A DNA stretch of 64,000 bases from Parachlamydiales bacterium (GTDB lineage: Bacteria > Chlamydiota > Chlamydiia > Chlamydiales > JAJFMK01): positions 5,463 through 69,462 of the forward strand of contig CAVXVG010000036.1 of assembly GCA_963765145.1 (NCBI GenBank). Direction: 5' to 3'. The translations under genes were made by a program, and so were the position numbers. The notes below the pieces were generated by a model, which saw only the letters and a program-made list of their open reading frames with translations, was not told the origin of the DNA and did not search any database. Positions 6,219-62,850 of the stretch are shown piece by piece; the stretch's first letter is position 1, and each line of letters starts with the position of its first letter.

Positions 6219-7208
6219 ATGCGCATTCTGATCGTAAAGACATCGAGTTTAGGCGACATCCTCCAGACATTTCCTGTTGTAGCTACACTTAAAAAAGCTT
6301 TTCCTGATTGCACCATCGATTGGGTCGTTGAAAAAGGGGGAGCACCTCTTATCATGGCCCATCCACAAATCGATCAAGCCTTGATTGTCGACAGCAAAAC
6401 TTGGGGCAAACTTCCCTCTCTTTTCCAACAAATCAAAAGCGTTAGAGGGAAAAAATATGATGTTCTTTTGGATATGCAGAGCAATTCGAAGTCGGCCCTT
6501 ATCACCCTTCTTGCAAAAGCCAAACGGAAGATCGGGTTTGGAGTTAAAACACGTCGCGAATGGCCAAATCTTTTGGTCACAAACGAAAAATACGATTGTC
6601 CCATCGGCAGAAATCGGAGGCTTGACTATCTCTATTTAGTGGAAGCCGCCTTTAACATTGCCCCTGTTCTTGAAGAAAAGGTCGAATTGAAGATCAGTGA
6701 TGAGGAGAAGGAGTTTTTAAAAACCTTTCCCCCCTCCCCTACTCTTGTCGCTCCAGGTTCGATGTGGAAAAACAAGACGGTAAAAAACGAGCCATTGGCC
6801 CAATTTCTGAAACAACTTGAAGGACCGTTCCTTTTTTCTTGGGGCAGCGCGGCAGAAAAAGAGACCGTGACAGCGTTAGCTGAACAGGTTGGAGGAACGG
6901 TGCTTCCTAAATTGTCTCTTCCCCTACTCCAGAGAGTCATGGGGCAATGTAAATTGGTCGTTTCGGCCGATTCTCTTCCCCTCCATTTAGCAGGAACAGC
7001 AGGCATACCCACCTACTCCTACTTTGGCCCTTCCAGTAGCCAAGTGTTTCGCCCCTTAGGCTCACTCCATCATTCGATCCAAGGAACTTGCCCCTACGGA
7101 GAAACCTTTGATCAACGGTGCCGCCTTCTTCGCAGCTGCAAGGACGCCCCTTGTATCAACCAACTTAATATGTTAAAATTTTTTGAACAAAATAAGGAGC
7201 AACGATAA
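6219..7208 (+). CDS. Glycosyltransferase family 9 (LPS heptosyltransferase-like)
   Basis: RILIVKTSSLGD N-terminus, DSLPLHLA and FGPS motifs. Confidence 0.85.
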   Translation: MRILIVKTSSLGDILQTFPVVATLKKAFPDCTIDWVVEKGGAPLIMAHPQIDQALIVDSKTWGKLPSLFQQIKSVRGKKYDVLLDMQSNSKSALITLLAKAKRKIGFGVKTRREWPNLLVTNEKYDCPIGRNRRLDYLYLVEAAFNIAPVLEEKVELKISDEEKEFLKTFPPSPTLVAPGSMWKNKTVKNEPLAQFLKQLEGPFLFSWGSAAEKETVTALAEQVGGTVLPKLSLPLLQRVMGQCKLVVSADSLPLHLAGTAGIPTYSYFGPSSSQVFRPLGSLHHSIQGTCPYGETFDQRCRLLRSCKDAPCINQLNMLKFFEQNKEQR

Positions 7209-7510
7209 TTTCTGCATTCAATTTAGCCTGTGGTTTAGGCCACAATCTTTTCTTAGTGGGTAAACCACTTTTCGATAAAAAACAATCAGCGGTTGATAAG
7301 ATACAACTTCTCTTTAGCTCTTTCGCCTCAGCTTATGGTTTTGCACTAGCAGAAAAAATGTTTCCTGCTCTAGCCAATAGTGCTGGATTACCTAGCGTTG
7401 GTCGCGCTGGAGGATTGGCTAAATTTATTGTAAGTTTGACCACATCAACTGTTGTGGCGCTCATATTTGGTGTACACATAGATGCAATTAGAGAACGATG
7501 GCTTAAGTAA
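7205..7510 (+). CDS. Small membrane protein, paralog 1 (ATA start or decayed start)
   Basis: Aligns with 7624-7956 from the ATA at 7205 (IISAFNLAC vs MITPINLAC; FALAEKMFPAL vs FTLADKLYPAL; VHIDAI vs VHLDAL). AAGGAG lies upstream. Confidence 0.6.
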   Translation: MISAFNLACGLGHNLFLVGKPLFDKKQSAVDKIQLLFSSFASAYGFALAEKMFPALANSAGLPSVGRAGGLAKFIVSLTTSTVVALIFGVHIDAIRERWLK

Positions 7511-7556
7511 CCGTTCAAGAAGCACCGCCCGAAGCTCCGGCACCCACATTCGTGGG

Positions 7557-7623
7557 TGCAAGGATGCCCCTTGTATCAATCAGTTAGATTTACTAACATC
7601 CTTCCCACATATTAAGGAAAACC
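7557..7623 (+). repeat. Diverged copy of the 3' end of the GT9 gene
   Basis: TGCAAGGATGCCCCTTGTATCAATCAG vs TGCAAGGACGCCCCTTGTATCAACCAA at 7137; both read CKDAPCINQL. Confidence 0.85.
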
Positions 7624-7956
7624 ATGATCACACCTATAAATTTAGCCTGCGCAGCAGCGCAGATGTTCTTCATAAATGGCCTCACACGAAAGGAAGGTAA
7701 AATTATATTCAATCCAAATTGGACGAAAATTGAGATCCTTAAGGCTGGTGCGTGTTCTTTCGCTGCTGCTTGCGGCTTTACACTGGCGGATAAACTCTAC
7801 CCTGCCCTAGTAAGCAGGATCAATTTACCTGGCGATGGGCTTTATGGAACGATGGCGAAAATAGGCTTAAAACTTTCAGCCGGATATCTATTCTCTTCCG
7901 CTGCATGTGTTCATCTTGATGCGCTCCAGAAATGGATTAACTACCCAAGGCAATGA
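7624..7956 (+). CDS. Small membrane protein, paralog 2
   Basis: 110 aa with hydrophobic helices, AAGGA RBS; paralog of 7205-7510. Confidence 0.7.
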   Translation: MITPINLACAAAQMFFINGLTRKEGKIIFNPNWTKIEILKAGACSFAAACGFTLADKLYPALVSRINLPGDGLYGTMAKIGLKLSAGYLFSSAACVHLDALQKWINYPRQ

Positions 7957-8018
7957 TGAATCCGGTATAAACCGAAGAAAGAATAGCACGCGAAGCATTC
8001 AATACGTGTCGCCCGAAG

Positions 8019-8337
8019 ATCCTGCACCCACATTCGTGGGTGCATCATTTTATTTCGTTAGATCGGACCATCCAAAACGCCCTTCGGGCGTTTCTCTCGC
8101 TAAAATGCGAAATTTGTAGCTTAAGCTTTAGCCTGAGCTCGTTTTGCAAGACTTTAGTCCTGCTATATGATTACGGGTTAAAACCCGTAAAAACAAACTC
8201 AGGCTAAAGCCTAAGCTACAAATATTTGGTAACGCCTGAAAGGCGTTTTGGATTGTAGCCCAGGGTAAGCGCGGAGCGCGCAACCCTGGGTAATGGTGCA
8301 TAAAAAGATTGTGCACCCACGAATGTGGGTGCGGGAT
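8019..8337. repeat. Composite palindrome: family A arms around a GTAG-type REP doublet
   Basis: GCACCCACATTCGTGGGTGC hairpins at 8024 and 8313. Inner TGTAGCTTAAGCTTTAGCCTGAG...CTCAGGCTAAAGCCTAAGCTACA at 8116-8220. Confidence 0.85.
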
Positions 8338-58782: not shown

Positions 58783-59784
58783 ATGGGCGCTGAACTTTAT
58801 CTCTTAATCATCGTAGGGGGCATCATTGCCCTGCTGCTAATTAGCATCATTGGCAAATTCATCAGCCTATGGTTCCAAGCTTTTGTTTCCGGTACGCCGA
58901 TTCCCTTTTTCAACATCATTGGGATGAGCCTACGAAAAATTCCCCCTCGTGTCATTGTCACAGCGCGGATCAATTCGTTTAAAGCGGGCTTAAAACAGAT
59001 CAGCGTCGCAGACCTAGAGACCCACTATTTGGCTGGCGGTAACGTGATTGCCGTGGTAGAGGCGATGATTGCAGCTGACAAAGCGAATATCCCTCTCGAC
59101 TGGAAAAGGGCCACTGCGATTGACTTGGCAGGACGTGATTTGAGAGAAGCGGTGAAAACATCGGTCAACCCAAAAGTGATCGATTGCCCTCCTCAACATG
59201 GTACAGGCAAAGGGTCGTACATGGCAGGTGTTGCCAAAGATGGAATCCAGCTGCTTTGCCGCGCCCGTGTGACCGTCCGCACTAACATTGTTCAATTGGT
59301 CGGTGGTGCGACTGAAGAGACCATCATCGCTCGCGTTGGTGAAGGGATTGTAGGGGCCATTGGGGGTGCCGACACCTATTTAGAGGTGCTTGAATCACCC
59401 CAAAAGATTTCTAAAGAGTGTTTGAAAAAGGGGCTTGATTCCCAAACTGCTTTTGAAATTTTGTCGATCGACATCGTTGAAATCGATGTGGGCGAAAACA
59501 TCGGAGCGACACTTCGAATCAAAAAGGCTCAAGCCGACATGGAAATTGCCCGTGCCGAAGCCGAAAAGCGACGTGCCATGGCTGTTGCTGCAGAACAAGA
59601 GTTCATCGCTTCGGTCAAAGAGATGGAAGCGAAAGTCATGGAAAACCAGGCCCAAGTGCCTCTAGCTATGGCTGAAGCTTTAAAACAGGGTCGCATTGGC
59701 TATTATGACAACCTAAAGTTCCAAAACTTGCAGTCAGACACTGAAATGCGTTCATCTTTAGGAAAAGAAGAGCCAAGGAAATAA
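58783..59784 (+). CDS. floA: Flotillin-like protein FloA (YqfA)
   Basis: [38 protein letters not shown] and [10 protein letters not shown]. Start reassigned to ATG 58783. Confidence 0.92.
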
Positions 59785-59789
59785 ACTCT

Positions 59790-60188
59790 ATGACCTTCAT
59801 CGAATGGATCGGCTTTGTCGCTAGTTTATTTGGGGTTATTTATTTATTTACTAAAGATGCTTGGGCAAAAAAGGAACGGGAAAGAGACCCTGTCAAATAT
59901 GCCGAAAAAGAGCGGCGGATAAGGGAAGTTCTTCGGCAGATGGGGGTTGAACCCGACGAAGAAGAACAGCCTGAAGAACAAGACGAGGATGAAGAGGAGG
60001 AAGAAGAAGTGGTAACCAAACAAAACATATTGCCTCCTCCTCCCCCGGTAAAAATCCATATTACGGCTCCGCCAACCCAAATCCTTTCTCGACCATCTCG
60101 TGTTGCTAACATGATCAAACAGCTGCCCGATGAGCGCGCCATCCTTGTCGCCCACATCCTCTTCGGCCCCCCCAAAAGCCTGGAATAA
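59790..60188 (+). CDS. Membrane-anchored acidic protein, last gene of the nfeD-floA operon
   Basis: N-terminal TM segment, acidic/Pro tract and C-terminal ILFGPPKSL. Confidence 0.75.
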   Translation: MTFIEWIGFVASLFGVIYLFTKDAWAKKERERDPVKYAEKERRIREVLRQMGVEPDEEEQPEEQDEDEEEEEEVVTKQNILPPPPPVKIHITAPPTQILSRPSRVANMIKQLPDERAILVAHILFGPPKSLE

Positions 60189-60288
60189 GAAAAAGAGGCC
60201 AGACCTTTTTATCCTTTAACTTTAATTAATAGTTATATGAATAGTTATATGCTATAATCATTTTCATAATTTATAGGAGAATTATAAA

Positions 60289-61062
60289 ATGTCAGCAATC
60301 AACGGCAATGGGGGAGTATCCCTCAATCACATGACTTCTTTACCCATTAAGGGATTCAATCAACTTACACAACTTAGCAAAAAAATGTGGAATGGAATAG
60401 CCTCAGCCGGAATAACCCCCACACAAGTGGAACTCATTGCGGAACTCATTGCTGGCGCTGCCTTAACATTCATCCTCCTTAAGGCTATTCAAAAACTATC
60501 TCAAGCTAATTTATTTCCCTCTAAAAGCACGACTCCTCTCCAGAAACAAATGATAATGCCAAATCCACTCTGGGAAGCACCTAAAAATAAAGTCACTGAT
60601 TTAAAAGAGTTAATGGCTTGCTTTTCTGCTTACACAAGGGATCTAGGTGGATCGTTTTCTATATTGCGCGGCTCAATATTTAAAGATGACACCGACAACA
60701 AAATAAAAATAAAAATAACCGATTACAATGTACAATTTCAATTTCCAAATGAAGTATTACGCAATCTTTTTTTAGCACGGCTTGATCAATCCCTTGCGAC
60801 TAAAGATTGGAAAAAGACAGCAGGACAAATGAAAACCGATGCAACTGAAAATGTAGAGCAAAAAACGTCTACAAGAACATATACATTGACTCCTCACCAG
60901 GCATATGCAATGGCAAATTTAACGCCTCTGAAAGATGAAATGAAACATTATGAAGGCTGGATAAAAAATTGGTACTTTAGCCGGGCAAACTCAGACATTG
61001 CTATGAGCGGGTCATCAGCCAACTACATCGTTCAAGAAGTTGTGCACGAGTCTAAACGCTAA
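60289..61062 (+). CDS. Variable membrane-anchored protein, paralog 1
   Basis: AGGAG RBS and one TM segment; N-terminus nearly identical to 61462-62097. Confidence 0.8.
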   Translation: MSAINGNGGVSLNHMTSLPIKGFNQLTQLSKKMWNGIASAGITPTQVELIAELIAGAALTFILLKAIQKLSQANLFPSKSTTPLQKQMIMPNPLWEAPKNKVTDLKELMACFSAYTRDLGGSFSILRGSIFKDDTDNKIKIKITDYNVQFQFPNEVLRNLFLARLDQSLATKDWKKTAGQMKTDATENVEQKTSTRTYTLTPHQAYAMANLTPLKDEMKHYEGWIKNWYFSRANSDIAMSGSSANYIVQEVVHESKR

Positions 61063-61085
61063 AACACTATTACTACTAAAACAAG

Positions 61086-61153
61086 AAAAGGGGCCGGGCC
61101 TCGAGATCCTGCGATTACTTTTAATCGCAGGATCTCGAGGCCCGGCCCCTTTT
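61086..61153. terminator. Perfect 32-bp stem-loop, terminator-like
   Basis: AAAAGGGGCCGGGCCTCGAGATCCTGCGATTA-CTTT-exact reverse complement. Confidence 0.75.
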
Positions 61154-61165
61154 TGCCGGTGCTGT

Positions 61166-61373
61166 TATTTTTTATGGGAAATAGGCATCGTTTGGAGGTG
61201 TGAGCGCAAAAGAACGATACCTCGATATAGAAGAGAAAATCCATATTACGGCTCCGCCAACCCAAATCCTTTCTCGACCATCTCGTGTTGCTAACATGAT
61301 CAAACAGCTGCCCGATGAGCGCGCCATCCTTGTCGCCCACATCCTCTTCGGCCCCCCCAAAAGCCTTGAATAA
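61166..61373 (+). repeat. Duplication junction: copy of yggS 5' end fused to copy of the 3' end of 59790-60188
   Basis: 61236-61366 is identical to 60051-60181 (131 bp); 61166-61242 resembles 62146-62222. Confidence 0.93.
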
Positions 61374-61461
61374 TTAAAAAGGCCGCACATTTTTTACCCT
61401 TTAAATTTAATTAATGATTATATGCTAAAATAGTTTTAATAATTTATAGGAGAATTATAAA

Positions 61462-62097
61462 ATGTCAGTAATCAACGGCAATGGGGGAGTATCCCTCAAT
61501 CACATGACTTCTTTACCCATTAAGGGATTCAACCAACTTGCACAACTTAGCAAAAAAATGTGGAATGGAATGGCCTCAGCCGGAATAACCCCCACACAAG
61601 CAAAACTCATAGCCGGCGCTGCCTTAGCACTCATTCTCTTTAAGGCTATTCAAAAGCTATCTCAAGCAAATTTATCCCCCCCTAAACCAAAACCTACAAA
61701 TCCAAGTTCTTGGAAAGTTCCCACTCAAAAAGTTAGGACTGCACAAGAGCTAAAAGATCGCTTTGGCGAGTACACACAAGGTATCGAAGGTGCTACCTTT
61801 AAGATAGTAAAAAGTCCCAAAGGTAACTTGCAGGTAATGTTTTGTTTCGAAACCGAAGAATCTCGTCAGCAATTGATAGACCGAGTAGATACATGGTCTT
61901 CAAACCAAGAAATTATACGGCAGTTTAGTCAATCCAAATATACAATGAACGAGTATGCATGGCAAAAAGGCCTTGCAGAGGGTAAGTTCACCTTTATTCT
62001 AAATGGAGCCGAAACTCAACATATGGCTAACATACCTTTTGAGCAAGACGCTTTGATGAAAGGATTGATGGAAAATTTATTCCATAGTTCAAACTAA
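61462..62097 (+). CDS. Variable membrane-anchored protein, paralog 2
   Basis: Same RBS and N-terminus as paralog 1, with a diverged C-terminal domain. Confidence 0.8.
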   Translation: MSVINGNGGVSLNHMTSLPIKGFNQLAQLSKKMWNGMASAGITPTQAKLIAGAALALILFKAIQKLSQANLSPPKPKPTNPSSWKVPTQKVRTAQELKDRFGEYTQGIEGATFKIVKSPKGNLQVMFCFETEESRQQLIDRVDTWSSNQEIIRQFSQSKYTMNEYAWQKGLAEGKFTFILNGAETQHMANIPFEQDALMKGLMENLFHSSN

Positions 62098-62111
62098 CCA
62101 TTCTTCGTTCG

Positions 62112-62146
62112 AAAAGAAAAAGAGGCCAAGCCTCTTTTTCTTTTTC
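62112..62146 (+). terminator. Intrinsic terminator
   Basis: AAAAGAAAAAGAGGC-CAA-GCCTCTTTTTCTTTTT. Confidence 0.7.
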
Positions 62147-62178
62147 TATTTTTATAGAAAATAGGCATCGTTTGGAGT

Positions 62179-62850
62179 GTGAGCGCAAAAGAACGATACC
62201 TCGATATTGAAGAAAAGATCCTGGAATTCAGGATGAACCATGTCCCCTACCCAATCACAACTGTGGTTGTCTCTAAAGGGGTTTCTGTTGAAAAAATATT
62301 AGAAGTATACAGCACCGGCTGCCGCGACTTTGGCGAAAGTTCCCTTTCAGAATGGGCTGAAAAAAAGGAAATGCTGCCAAAGGATATCCGCTGGCACATG
62401 ATTGGCCCCTTACAAACCAAAAAAGTGCCCAAACTCATCGGCAATTTTACCTTGATCCATTCTGTCGATTCTTTTGAATTGTTAAAAACCATCCATGAAA
62501 AAAGCACTCAGGCAGGTGTGATCACCTCTGTCCTCCTCGAAAGCAACACATCGGGGGAGGAGACAAAAAAAGGGTTAACCCCTTATGAGTGGGAACAAGT
62601 TTGGAACGATTGCGGAACACTCACTTCGGTTGAAATTTTGGGACTGATGACAATGGCCCCTTTAACAGAAGATAGGCCCCTCATTCGAGACTGCTTTAAA
62701 AATTTGCGTTTACTACGCGACCGGTTGTTGCAAAGGGCGTTTACCAACACCCCGCTCTACCACCTTTCGATGGGGATGTCGAACGATTGGCCGATTGCCA
62801 TCGATGAAGGTGCAACCTTGGTTCGCATAGGAACTGCAATTTTTAAATAA
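62179..62850 (+). CDS. yggS: PLP homeostasis protein YggS
   Basis: VVVSK, FGE, WHMIGPLQTKK, IHSVDS, GLMTM, LSMGMSND and VRIGTAIF. Confidence 0.95.
   Translation: MSAKERYLDIEEKILEFRMNHVPYPITTVVVSKGVSVEKILEVYSTGCRDFGESSLSEWAEKKEMLPKDIRWHMIGPLQTKKVPKLIGNFTLIHSVDSFELLKTIHEKSTQAGVITSVLLESNTSGEETKKGLTPYEWEQVWNDCGTLTSVEILGLMTMAPLTEDRPLIRDCFKNLRLLRDRLLQRAFTNTPLYHLSMGMSNDWPIAIDEGATLVRIGTAIFK

Follow-up and report, generated by a model that had tools for sequence, protein, structure and literature searches.

Two stacked A-V-yggS units in a Parachlamydiales genome and their possible origin by recombination between diverged versions of one locus

A 64,000-nt stretch of a Parachlamydiales genome (contig CAVXVG010000036.1) carries two head-to-tail units of some 1.2 kb between gene A (59790-60188) and yggS (62179-62850). 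We call the whole stretch the window, and positions refer to it unless a contig is given; A is our name for the small gene that follows floA. Each unit consists, in this order, of the 3′ end of A, an intergenic region, a variable gene (V1 in unit 1, V2 in unit 2), a hairpin and the start of yggS. We put at roughly one half the probability that generic recombination produced this stack from two diverged versions of the A-V-yggS locus, through one homologous exchange and one illegitimate join. The structure is real and tidy, it is best explained by known recombination processes, and it adds one gene of an orphan family to one strain. The source genome (G000) is a metagenome-assembled genome (MAG) of 2.68 Mb in 37 contigs, 84.8% complete, whose contigs are given below as C-numbers and whose nearest named relatives are Parachlamydiales and Chlamydiae MAGs. 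We compared it with three genomes (G001-G003), of which G001 is complete and belongs to the same genus, with five related MAG loci (L018 and L019 among them) and with contigs from four peat runs. These four were taken from 17 public runs that hold part of the stretch, each at most 0.24 of the sampled words, 15 of them labelled as peat metagenomes and 2 as soil. Proteins recovered by database searches are numbered P0001, P0002 and P0006-P0009.

Identity between the two units changes abruptly from block to block. The end of A is repeated without a single difference over 131 nt (60051-60181 and 61236-61366; the match extends to 144 nt at 98%). The next 46 nt, which comprise the stop codon and the proximal intergenic stretch, differ at 14 positions (30%), the distal intergenic part at 6 of 49 (12%), V codons 1-46 at 4 of 138 nt (2.9%) and the next 29 V codons at 13 of 87 (14.9%), whereas the V C-domains have no DNA similarity; in the right flank there are 5 differences in 74 nt and a 1-nt indel. 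The corresponding alignments pair 60237-60440 with 61410-61613 (204 nt, 93%), 60443-60525 with 61604-61686 (83 nt, 87%), and, in the right flank, 61169-61197 with 62149-62177 and 61198-61242 with 62177-62221 (each 93%). When the A end (0/131) is set against all other alignable parts together (42/394, 10.7%), Fisher's test gives p = 6.5e-6. As proteins, V1 and V2 match with a BLASTP E value of 8e-48; their leaders are identical at 64 of 72 positions, with 7 synonymous and 9 nonsynonymous codon differences, and their C-domains at 33 of 124 (27%), the break in similarity coinciding with the leader/C-domain boundary. Since divergence is 0-15% in flanks and leader but the C-domains cannot be aligned as DNA, and since V2 shares 54% identity with a paralogue from another contig, the V1 and V2 C-domains 27%, these comparisons indicate that the C-domains of V1 and V2 did not diverge in place.

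The join between the units, AAAATCC, connects yggS codon 14 with codon 88 of gene A, and so ties the right-hand edge of the unit to its left-hand edge. The orphan yggS start that precedes it departs from the working gene at three coding positions, all synonymous (ATA/ATT, GAG/GAA, AAA/AAG), and, just upstream of the coding part, by a 1-nt indel and two substitutions. In the yggS of the peat contigs a G is added behind 62176 and position 62217 is A; both are the states of the orphan copy, unlike those of the working yggS in the source genome. Because all three coding differences are synonymous and two states are common to the peat yggS, the comparison suggests that the orphan start evolved within a working gene of another background. 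An initial annotation of the window, made from the letters alone, had reported the order of parts within each unit, the 131-bp identical left flank, the microhomology at 61236, the nearly identical paralog starts with remotely similar C-terminal domains and the synonymous-only differences of the orphan yggS start, and we recovered every one of these where it had placed them.

We propose that two versions of the locus met, probably from strains in one host cell or via DNA uptake. The homologous side would have been resolved in or beside the 3′ end of A, at about 60181/60182, and the other side closed illegitimately at the 7-nt AAAATCC, as is expected in homology-facilitated illegitimate recombination; an unequal exchange of two non-identical chromosomes would amount to the same. 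V1 would have been added, together with the intergenic region and hairpin that belong to it, ahead of a resident V2, the orphan yggS start and the orphan A end being left at the join; presumably both V genes are expressed. On this account both A ends would come from the recipient and hence be identical, the orphan yggS start would come from the donor and hence show differences that are synonymous and common to other strains, and the V2-only strains would represent the unaltered state. The sharp drop in identity at 60182 fits a crossover point, and the 131-nt block also fits a conversion tract. A ComEC-type Competence domain is encoded in the source genome (136 bits), but the same family is found in 10 of 14 control genomes, so that it is no sign of uptake itself.

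Several observations weigh against such an exchange. The donor is hypothetical, neither a single-unit A-V1-yggS arrangement nor another V1-type protein having been found in the databases searched. The V1 body (60336-61037) and the join (61155-61388) have zero cover in all four peat runs, a result that shows neither absence nor artefact and leaves the join with no independent read or contig behind it. Patchy divergence (2.9%, 14.9% and 30% by block) is not what one uniformly diverged import predicts and is what repeated gene conversion predicts, and one import likewise leaves unpredicted that synonymous divergence differs tenfold from one half of the leader to the other. The peat contigs resemble unit 1 through the proximal intergenic part as far as 60223 and unit 2 from 61410 on, exactly as a deletion product of a stacked ancestor would. 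Gene conversion between tandem paralogues is also seen in the source genome: at C29:23282-27586, two tandem paralogues (609 and 725 aa) with 59-63% protein identity share a 358-nt tract at 99.7%, which on sequence is a clear case of conversion.

These last facts would suit an older duplication in place, in which a single A-V-yggS unit was doubled via microhomology, one C-domain was later replaced or diverged, gene conversion in patches kept flanks and leader alike, and V1 disappeared from the V2-only strains through recombination between the repeats. Its textbook product is a head-to-tail pair of units that meet at a microhomology, the block differences (0%, 30%, 12%, 2.9%, 15%) fit several short conversion tracts, and an older-looking stack at 7129-8043 of the window has evenly diverged flanks (71%) and proteins (33%). 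We nevertheless hold this history to be less likely than the exchange, of which it is the main rival. It needs a second event to import a foreign C-domain, and it puts the homogenisation of the V1 leader, which is equidistant (64/72) from V2, P0001 and P0002, before the split of the strains, yet the A end, at 131/131, must be very recent. It also asks two unselected orphan fragments to persist beside 131-nt perfect repeats that invite deletion, and the site is empty in two genomes of the same genus. The initial annotation had read the stack as two alleles brought together by homology-anchored recombination with a microhomology exit; the separate origin of the C-domains and the join bear this out in part, and duplication in place is the rival that it has to contend with.

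The peat contigs also show what the locus looks like in other strains, their flanking genes differing from ours by 6-9% (68/751 in floA-A, 46/707 in yggS). In three of the four runs, one contig each connects 60223 with 61410 and skips 1186 nt, which gives a one-unit A-V2-yggS form. The 5′ half of V2 differs from these contigs at 2/441 and 6/497 positions (98.8-99.5% identical), as against 91-94% identity in the flanking housekeeping genes, and P0001 equals V2 over its first 119 residues, after which 12 of 92 differ. As the 5′ half of V2 is near-identical while floA-A and yggS have diverged, and as P0001 has a matching pattern, homologous exchange between strains at this locus is recent, and V2 itself is evidently a mosaic between strains. 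Within residues 156-205 of V2 there are, as a separate observation, 8 positions where the source genome differs from P0001 and P0002, which agree with each other.

An artefact of assembly, by which two strain versions were chained or a loop was traversed the wrong number of times, is very improbable. The genome is a draft of many contigs, V1 and the join lack cover in runs of which the best holds 0.24 of the sampled words, and a perfect repeat of 131 nt forms a loop in the assembly graph whose copy number short reads do not fix. However, 7 nt lies far below any assembler word length, so that no false de Bruijn path can run through it and the join sequence must exist in reads; the orphan yggS differs from the working copy and hence is no collapsed duplicate; and the four runs hold other strains.

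In relatives, the site holds no V gene. The nfeD-floA-A-yggS block is kept in 5/5 related loci and the V gene is found in 0/5; orthologues of A are present in G001-G003 and the five MAG loci, preceded by floA each time. A overlaps the yggS start by 4 nt in G002 and by 10 nt in G003, the two genes abut in L019, and the A-yggS junction was left unresolved in L018. In G001 they are separated by a 533-nt non-coding spacer (L009 968-1500), built of dispersed repeats that also lie on many contigs of the source genome; it resembles neither unit and contains no remnant of V. The A-yggS boundary is thus insertion-prone in more than one way. No V gene stands at the site in two same-genus genomes, and, given its absence from the five related loci, V genes must have entered after the split from those genomes. 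Four states of the site are seen: empty, filled with dispersed repeats, one-unit and stacked. A comparison of the floA-yggS interval across strains had been expected to reveal varying numbers and types of C-domain behind one leader. The number of units does vary (none, one, two), but outside the source genome the C-domain is of the V2 type only.

The V proteins form a tiny, lineage-restricted orphan family. V1 and V2 have no Pfam family above cut-off and match no restriction-modification (RM) family. Two further members are encoded in the source genome (C29:73443-74162 and C2:30373-31008), and a search of 60 relatives' genomes with V2 gave 0 matches beyond it. Among 5.8 billion proteins, V2 has as relatives, besides V1, only P0001 (94%) and P0002 (87%), both V2-type, and the V1 C-domain matches itself alone. 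An exhaustive profile search of 1.84 billion representatives returned 7 proteins at E <= 0.001, V1 not among them: P0001 as representative of the V2 type, the two paralogues of the source genome, P0006 (a frameshifted V2-type allele of another strain), P0007 (193 aa), P0008 and P0009 (786 aa, weak). P0008 (328 aa) is a distant relative with two tandem V C-domains after a 27-residue hydrophobic stretch. The C-domain of V1 is the outlier of the family, with 26-29% identity to every other member, whereas V2 has 54% identity to the C29 paralogue. With every other sequence at the site being V2-type (P0001, P0002, P0006 and the peat contigs), the "hypervariable slot" of the initial annotation found no support.

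For V2, an AlphaFold2 model from a 6-row alignment predicts an alpha/beta C-domain at pLDDT 80-91 and a helical leader of low confidence. Foldseek against the PDB gave 0 matches to this model at E <= 0.001, VIA-align over 48,161 chains reached a best Z of 5.1, below the meaningful level, and the ESM Atlas gave no lead (best score 0.76); a scan of metagenome contigs with leader patterns yielded 209 pattern matches, none confirmed. Because the hydrophobic stretch of the leader amounts to merely 12 uncharged residues, the longest such run in V1 and V2 (27 in P0008), membrane anchoring of either protein is uncertain. The defining feature of chlamydial inclusion-membrane (Inc) proteins is a bilobed hydrophobic domain about 40 residues long or longer, and an Inc-protein reading of V1 and V2 was rejected on this run length. 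The earlier description of these proteins as host-facing is not backed by evidence from family, fold or localisation. On C2, a perfect 41-nt direct repeat (C2:30234-30274, 31105-31145) flanks the V paralogue; as a whole it occurs at those two places only, and its right part overlaps a dispersed repeat. In the same region (C2:29002-31145), this paralogue adjoins open reading frames (ORFs) of 184 and 206 aa in which, by eye, there are Inc-like long double hydrophobic stretches.

The layout of the stack invites comparison with several known arrangements. Rhs, contact-dependent inhibition (CDI) and polymorphic-toxin loci combine a constant N-terminal part with swappable C-terminal parts, and displaced orphan modules lie beside the active gene. 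The V genes resemble these stacks in their constant N-terminal and swappable C-terminal parts and in the leftover pieces that are retained; they are unlike them in that both V genes are complete, with their own start and upstream region, and in that the constant part is about 75 residues long. No immunity gene or toxin family was seen at the V genes, and no small same-strand ORF follows either of them, bar one that runs out of frame through the hairpin. Integron cassettes have related attC hairpins at their bounds and join at the recombination site. An integron-type cassette was rejected, since hairpin H1, with arms of 32 nt, bears no relation to H2, whose arms measure 15 nt, and the two units meet within the coding part of yggS, 83 nt beyond H1; no search for an integron integrase was made.

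In homology-facilitated illegitimate recombination, documented in transformable bacteria, one homologous anchor is combined with one join at a microhomology of 3-10 nt, according to the part of PMC2884548 that summarises de Vries & Wackernagel 2002, Prudhomme et al. 2002 and Meier & Wackernagel 2003. Our locus shares with the process as outlined there the join at a few bases of microhomology and, on the origin proposed above, would also share the homology anchor and the trapping of extra DNA beside a conserved gene (PMC2884548). In that outline the process is known only from laboratory species with natural transformation, chlamydiae not being among them (PMC2884548). Here, in contrast, the trapped DNA would be the other version of the locus, which yields a tandem stack with the orphan ends of both neighbours, and no donor was found.

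Insertion with long target duplication was reportedly described by Nobusato et al. in 2000. The published cases, in the portion of Furuta, Abe & Kobayashi 2010 (PMC2853133) that presents them, are RM systems; there is no mobility gene, and the direct repeats are longer than 30 bp, single-copy at the empty site and of a length that varies by locus. At our locus, the repeats measure 131-144 nt and the peat contigs hold one copy. On its + strand the unit has just three ORFs, none of them an integrase or transposase: V1, the chimeric ORF of 57 aa and an ORF of 84 aa (61040-61294) that crosses the hairpin out of frame. Our case is unlike the published ones in that V1 and V2 belong to no RM family, in that the inserts in this genome are mostly orphan genes, plus kinase-like, AvrB_AvrC-like and nuclease-like ones, and in that the A-yggS insert also carries a piece of its right-hand neighbour. 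Microhomology-mediated tandem duplication, as outlined in PMC13167724 and bioRxiv 10.64898/2026.02.28.708716, likewise gives head-to-tail units with a short microhomology at the join, as AAAATCC is here. By those outlines such units start out identical, and even divergence would be expected, whereas in our units the central 0.5 kb shows no relationship at the DNA level and the A end is set apart from all the rest. To the extent that they are described in PMC2884548 and PMC2853133, homology-facilitated illegitimate recombination and long target duplication together account for the structure, and the claim that it represents an undescribed system is not supported.

The initial annotation had also called for a genome-wide search for duplicated gene ends that bracket other genes, and this was fruitful. 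We screened for direct repeats spaced 300-4000 nt apart, 40-600 nt long, at least 85% identical, present at no more than 3 places in the genome and extending over the end of an ORF that is 120 aa or longer. Spacing, length and identity were satisfied by 71 pairs, and 25 passed the remaining filters (19/25 at exactly two places), making up about 19 loci with A-yggS included. The pairs overlap the end of a flanking gene and bracket 1-3 inserted genes, often with an orphan fragment of a neighbour; a complete gene on one side and its orphan fragment on the other are found at C26:144619-146722, C29:283991-288191, C2:162735-167152 and C4:5710-10195. At C28:95868-96786 the flanks are 948 nt apart in the source genome as against 32 nt in G001, and on this spacing, which G001 polarises, the insertion of a kinase-like gene evidently duplicated 65 nt. 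For the C26 locus, G001 has the two inner genes as a block at 82% identity, and the flanks have no match there. Pfam families above cut-off were found in 5/20 inner genes (Pkinase, AvrB_AvrC, YhcG nuclease, AAA-ATPase with PDDEXK_9, DUF6036), and no integrase or transposase was seen among the 20 inner genes scanned. As the repeats vary in length and position from one locus to the next and we see neither a site nor an enzyme in common, we read the loci, on their sequence, as the footprint of general recombination and not of a dedicated machine. A keyword literature search, short of a review, brought up no description of this pattern of duplicated gene ends in chlamydiae.

The second stack in the window, at 7129-8043, consists of the end of a glycosyltransferase-like gene (last 70 nt), a small gene and a hairpin, each present twice. 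It is evenly diverged, the flank copy being 71% identical and the small proteins (84 and 110 aa) 33%. Its second unit begins at the GCACCCACATTCGTGGGTGC hairpin, which is a dispersed repeat, and among four genomes searched its small genes occur in the source genome only. As its flanks are only 71% identical, this stack looks like an older event of the same kind.

A dedicated stacking or cassette system, in essence the idea of the initial annotation, would have promoter-gene-hairpin units that use the ends of both neighbours as homology arms, a 1.2-kb circle that re-integrates at the same site in any strain and arrays of C-domains behind a constant leader. We consider such a system improbable. 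In its favour, a single unit corresponds exactly to a circle-permuted [A end - V - hairpin - yggS start], the window contains a second stack, the C2 paralogue sits between unique perfect direct repeats, duplicated gene ends recur across the genome and similarity breaks exactly at the leader/C-domain boundary. Against these stand the lack of a recombinase, an integrase or a shared recombination site, the unrelated hairpins, a join that lies in yggS coding sequence and the 0/20 inner genes at other loci that match a mobility family. Only two types of C-domain are known at the site, one of them a singleton, and the repeats, all different in length and position among loci, fit accidents of general recombination. 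It is similarly doubtful that environmental chlamydiae move accessory genes as "homology-armed" units, which would loop out and re-enter the corresponding site of another strain by single crossover and of which the 19 or so loci would be the footprints. Of the general allele-stacking route suggested by the initial annotation, the duplicated ends at many loci and the second stack stand, and no dedicated system is supported.

The features of the locus, together with repeat pairs elsewhere in the genome, are collected in Table 1. Gene A, which sits downstream of nfeD-floA, has no Pfam family above cut-off. A putative promoter motif, TGCTATAAT, lies at 60250-60258 in intergenic region 1 and was, like the ribosome-binding site motif, picked by eye; upstream of the V genes a consensus promoter scan found no + strand site that could be used, its + strand matches ending on start codons. 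An Rfam scan of 59500-62500 returned sub-threshold hairpin look-alikes only. The 31-nt arm of H1 (AAAGGGGCC.GGCCTCGAGATCCTGCGATTA) recurs as single arms at C8:439-470, C8:5528-5558 and C21:12007-12035, and its surroundings in the peat contigs are different; instead of serving just as a terminator, the arm may be a dispersed element or recombination site. Two 12-nt tandem duplications are present in unit 1 and absent from unit 2, one intergenic (60228-60251, AATAGTTATATG twice) and one in the hydrophobic helix of V1 (60427-60450, VELIAELIA). The stretch just past the A stop codon in unit 1 (60187-60217) is identical at 26/31 positions (84%) to the terminator after V2 (62114-62144), a likeness that could reflect target duplication from the first insertion of V2 and could also be due to chance, as between A/T-rich hairpins.

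Table 1. Features of the A-yggS locus (window positions) and direct-repeat pairs at other loci (contig positions)
Feature	Position	Strand	Remarks
Gene A	59790..60188	+	132 aa; N-terminal hydrophobic helix, acidic/proline linker, conserved LFGPPKSLE end; ORF
Left-flank repeat, copy 1	60051..60181	+	within intact gene A; 131-nt exact run, equal to 61236-61366
Intergenic region 1	60182..60288	+	A stop codon, weak hairpin, 12-nt tandem duplication, GGAG ahead of ATG
V1	60289..61062	+	257 aa; V-type leader of about 79 aa; most divergent C-domain of the family
Hairpin H1	61086..61153	+	perfect 32-nt arms, 4-nt loop, then T run; -70 kcal/mol, z = -12.7
Orphan yggS start	61169..61242	+	yggS upstream region and first 14 codons; 93% identical to 62149-62221
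Novel join	61236..61242	+	microhomology AAAATCC, common to yggS-type and A-type sequence
Orphan A 3′ end	61236..61373	+	44 codons and stop
Chimeric ORF (predicted)	61200..61373	+	57 aa, in frame; yggS residues 1-14 and A residues 89-132; orphan yggS ribosome-binding site upstream
Intergenic region 2	61374..61461	+	
V2	61462..62097	+	211 aa; type present in other strains
Hairpin H2	62112..62144	+	terminator-like, 15 nt per arm, then T run; -21.6 kcal/mol, z = -4.8
Working yggS and 30 nt upstream	62149..62850	+	pyridoxal phosphate-binding YggS type; Pfam Ala_racemase_N 58.3 bits; orthologues in relatives
Repeat pair	C26:145010-145375/146358-146723		
Repeat pair	C29:286254-286624/287866-288236		
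Repeat pair	C2:162965-163325/166760-167113		
Repeat pair	C4:5808-6199/9685-10078		
Repeat pair	C5:4489-4559/5398-5467		
Repeat pair	C28:95868-95932/96722-96786		

Recombination is thought to be the main route of gene exchange in chlamydiae, and to our knowledge the entry of new genes without mobile elements is poorly documented outside the pathogenic chlamydiae. The A-yggS locus offers a clean natural example, with its four states seen and its join sequence still legible. In the cases set out in PMC2853133, long target duplication is described for restriction-modification genes in other phyla, and this one genome holds about 19 such loci. For the strain itself, the likely consequence of the stack is a second, very different member of a lineage-restricted family, and the arrangement can be lost again through recombination between its repeats. 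If the pattern holds in long-read genomes, general recombination alone would build much of the accessory genome of these bacteria.

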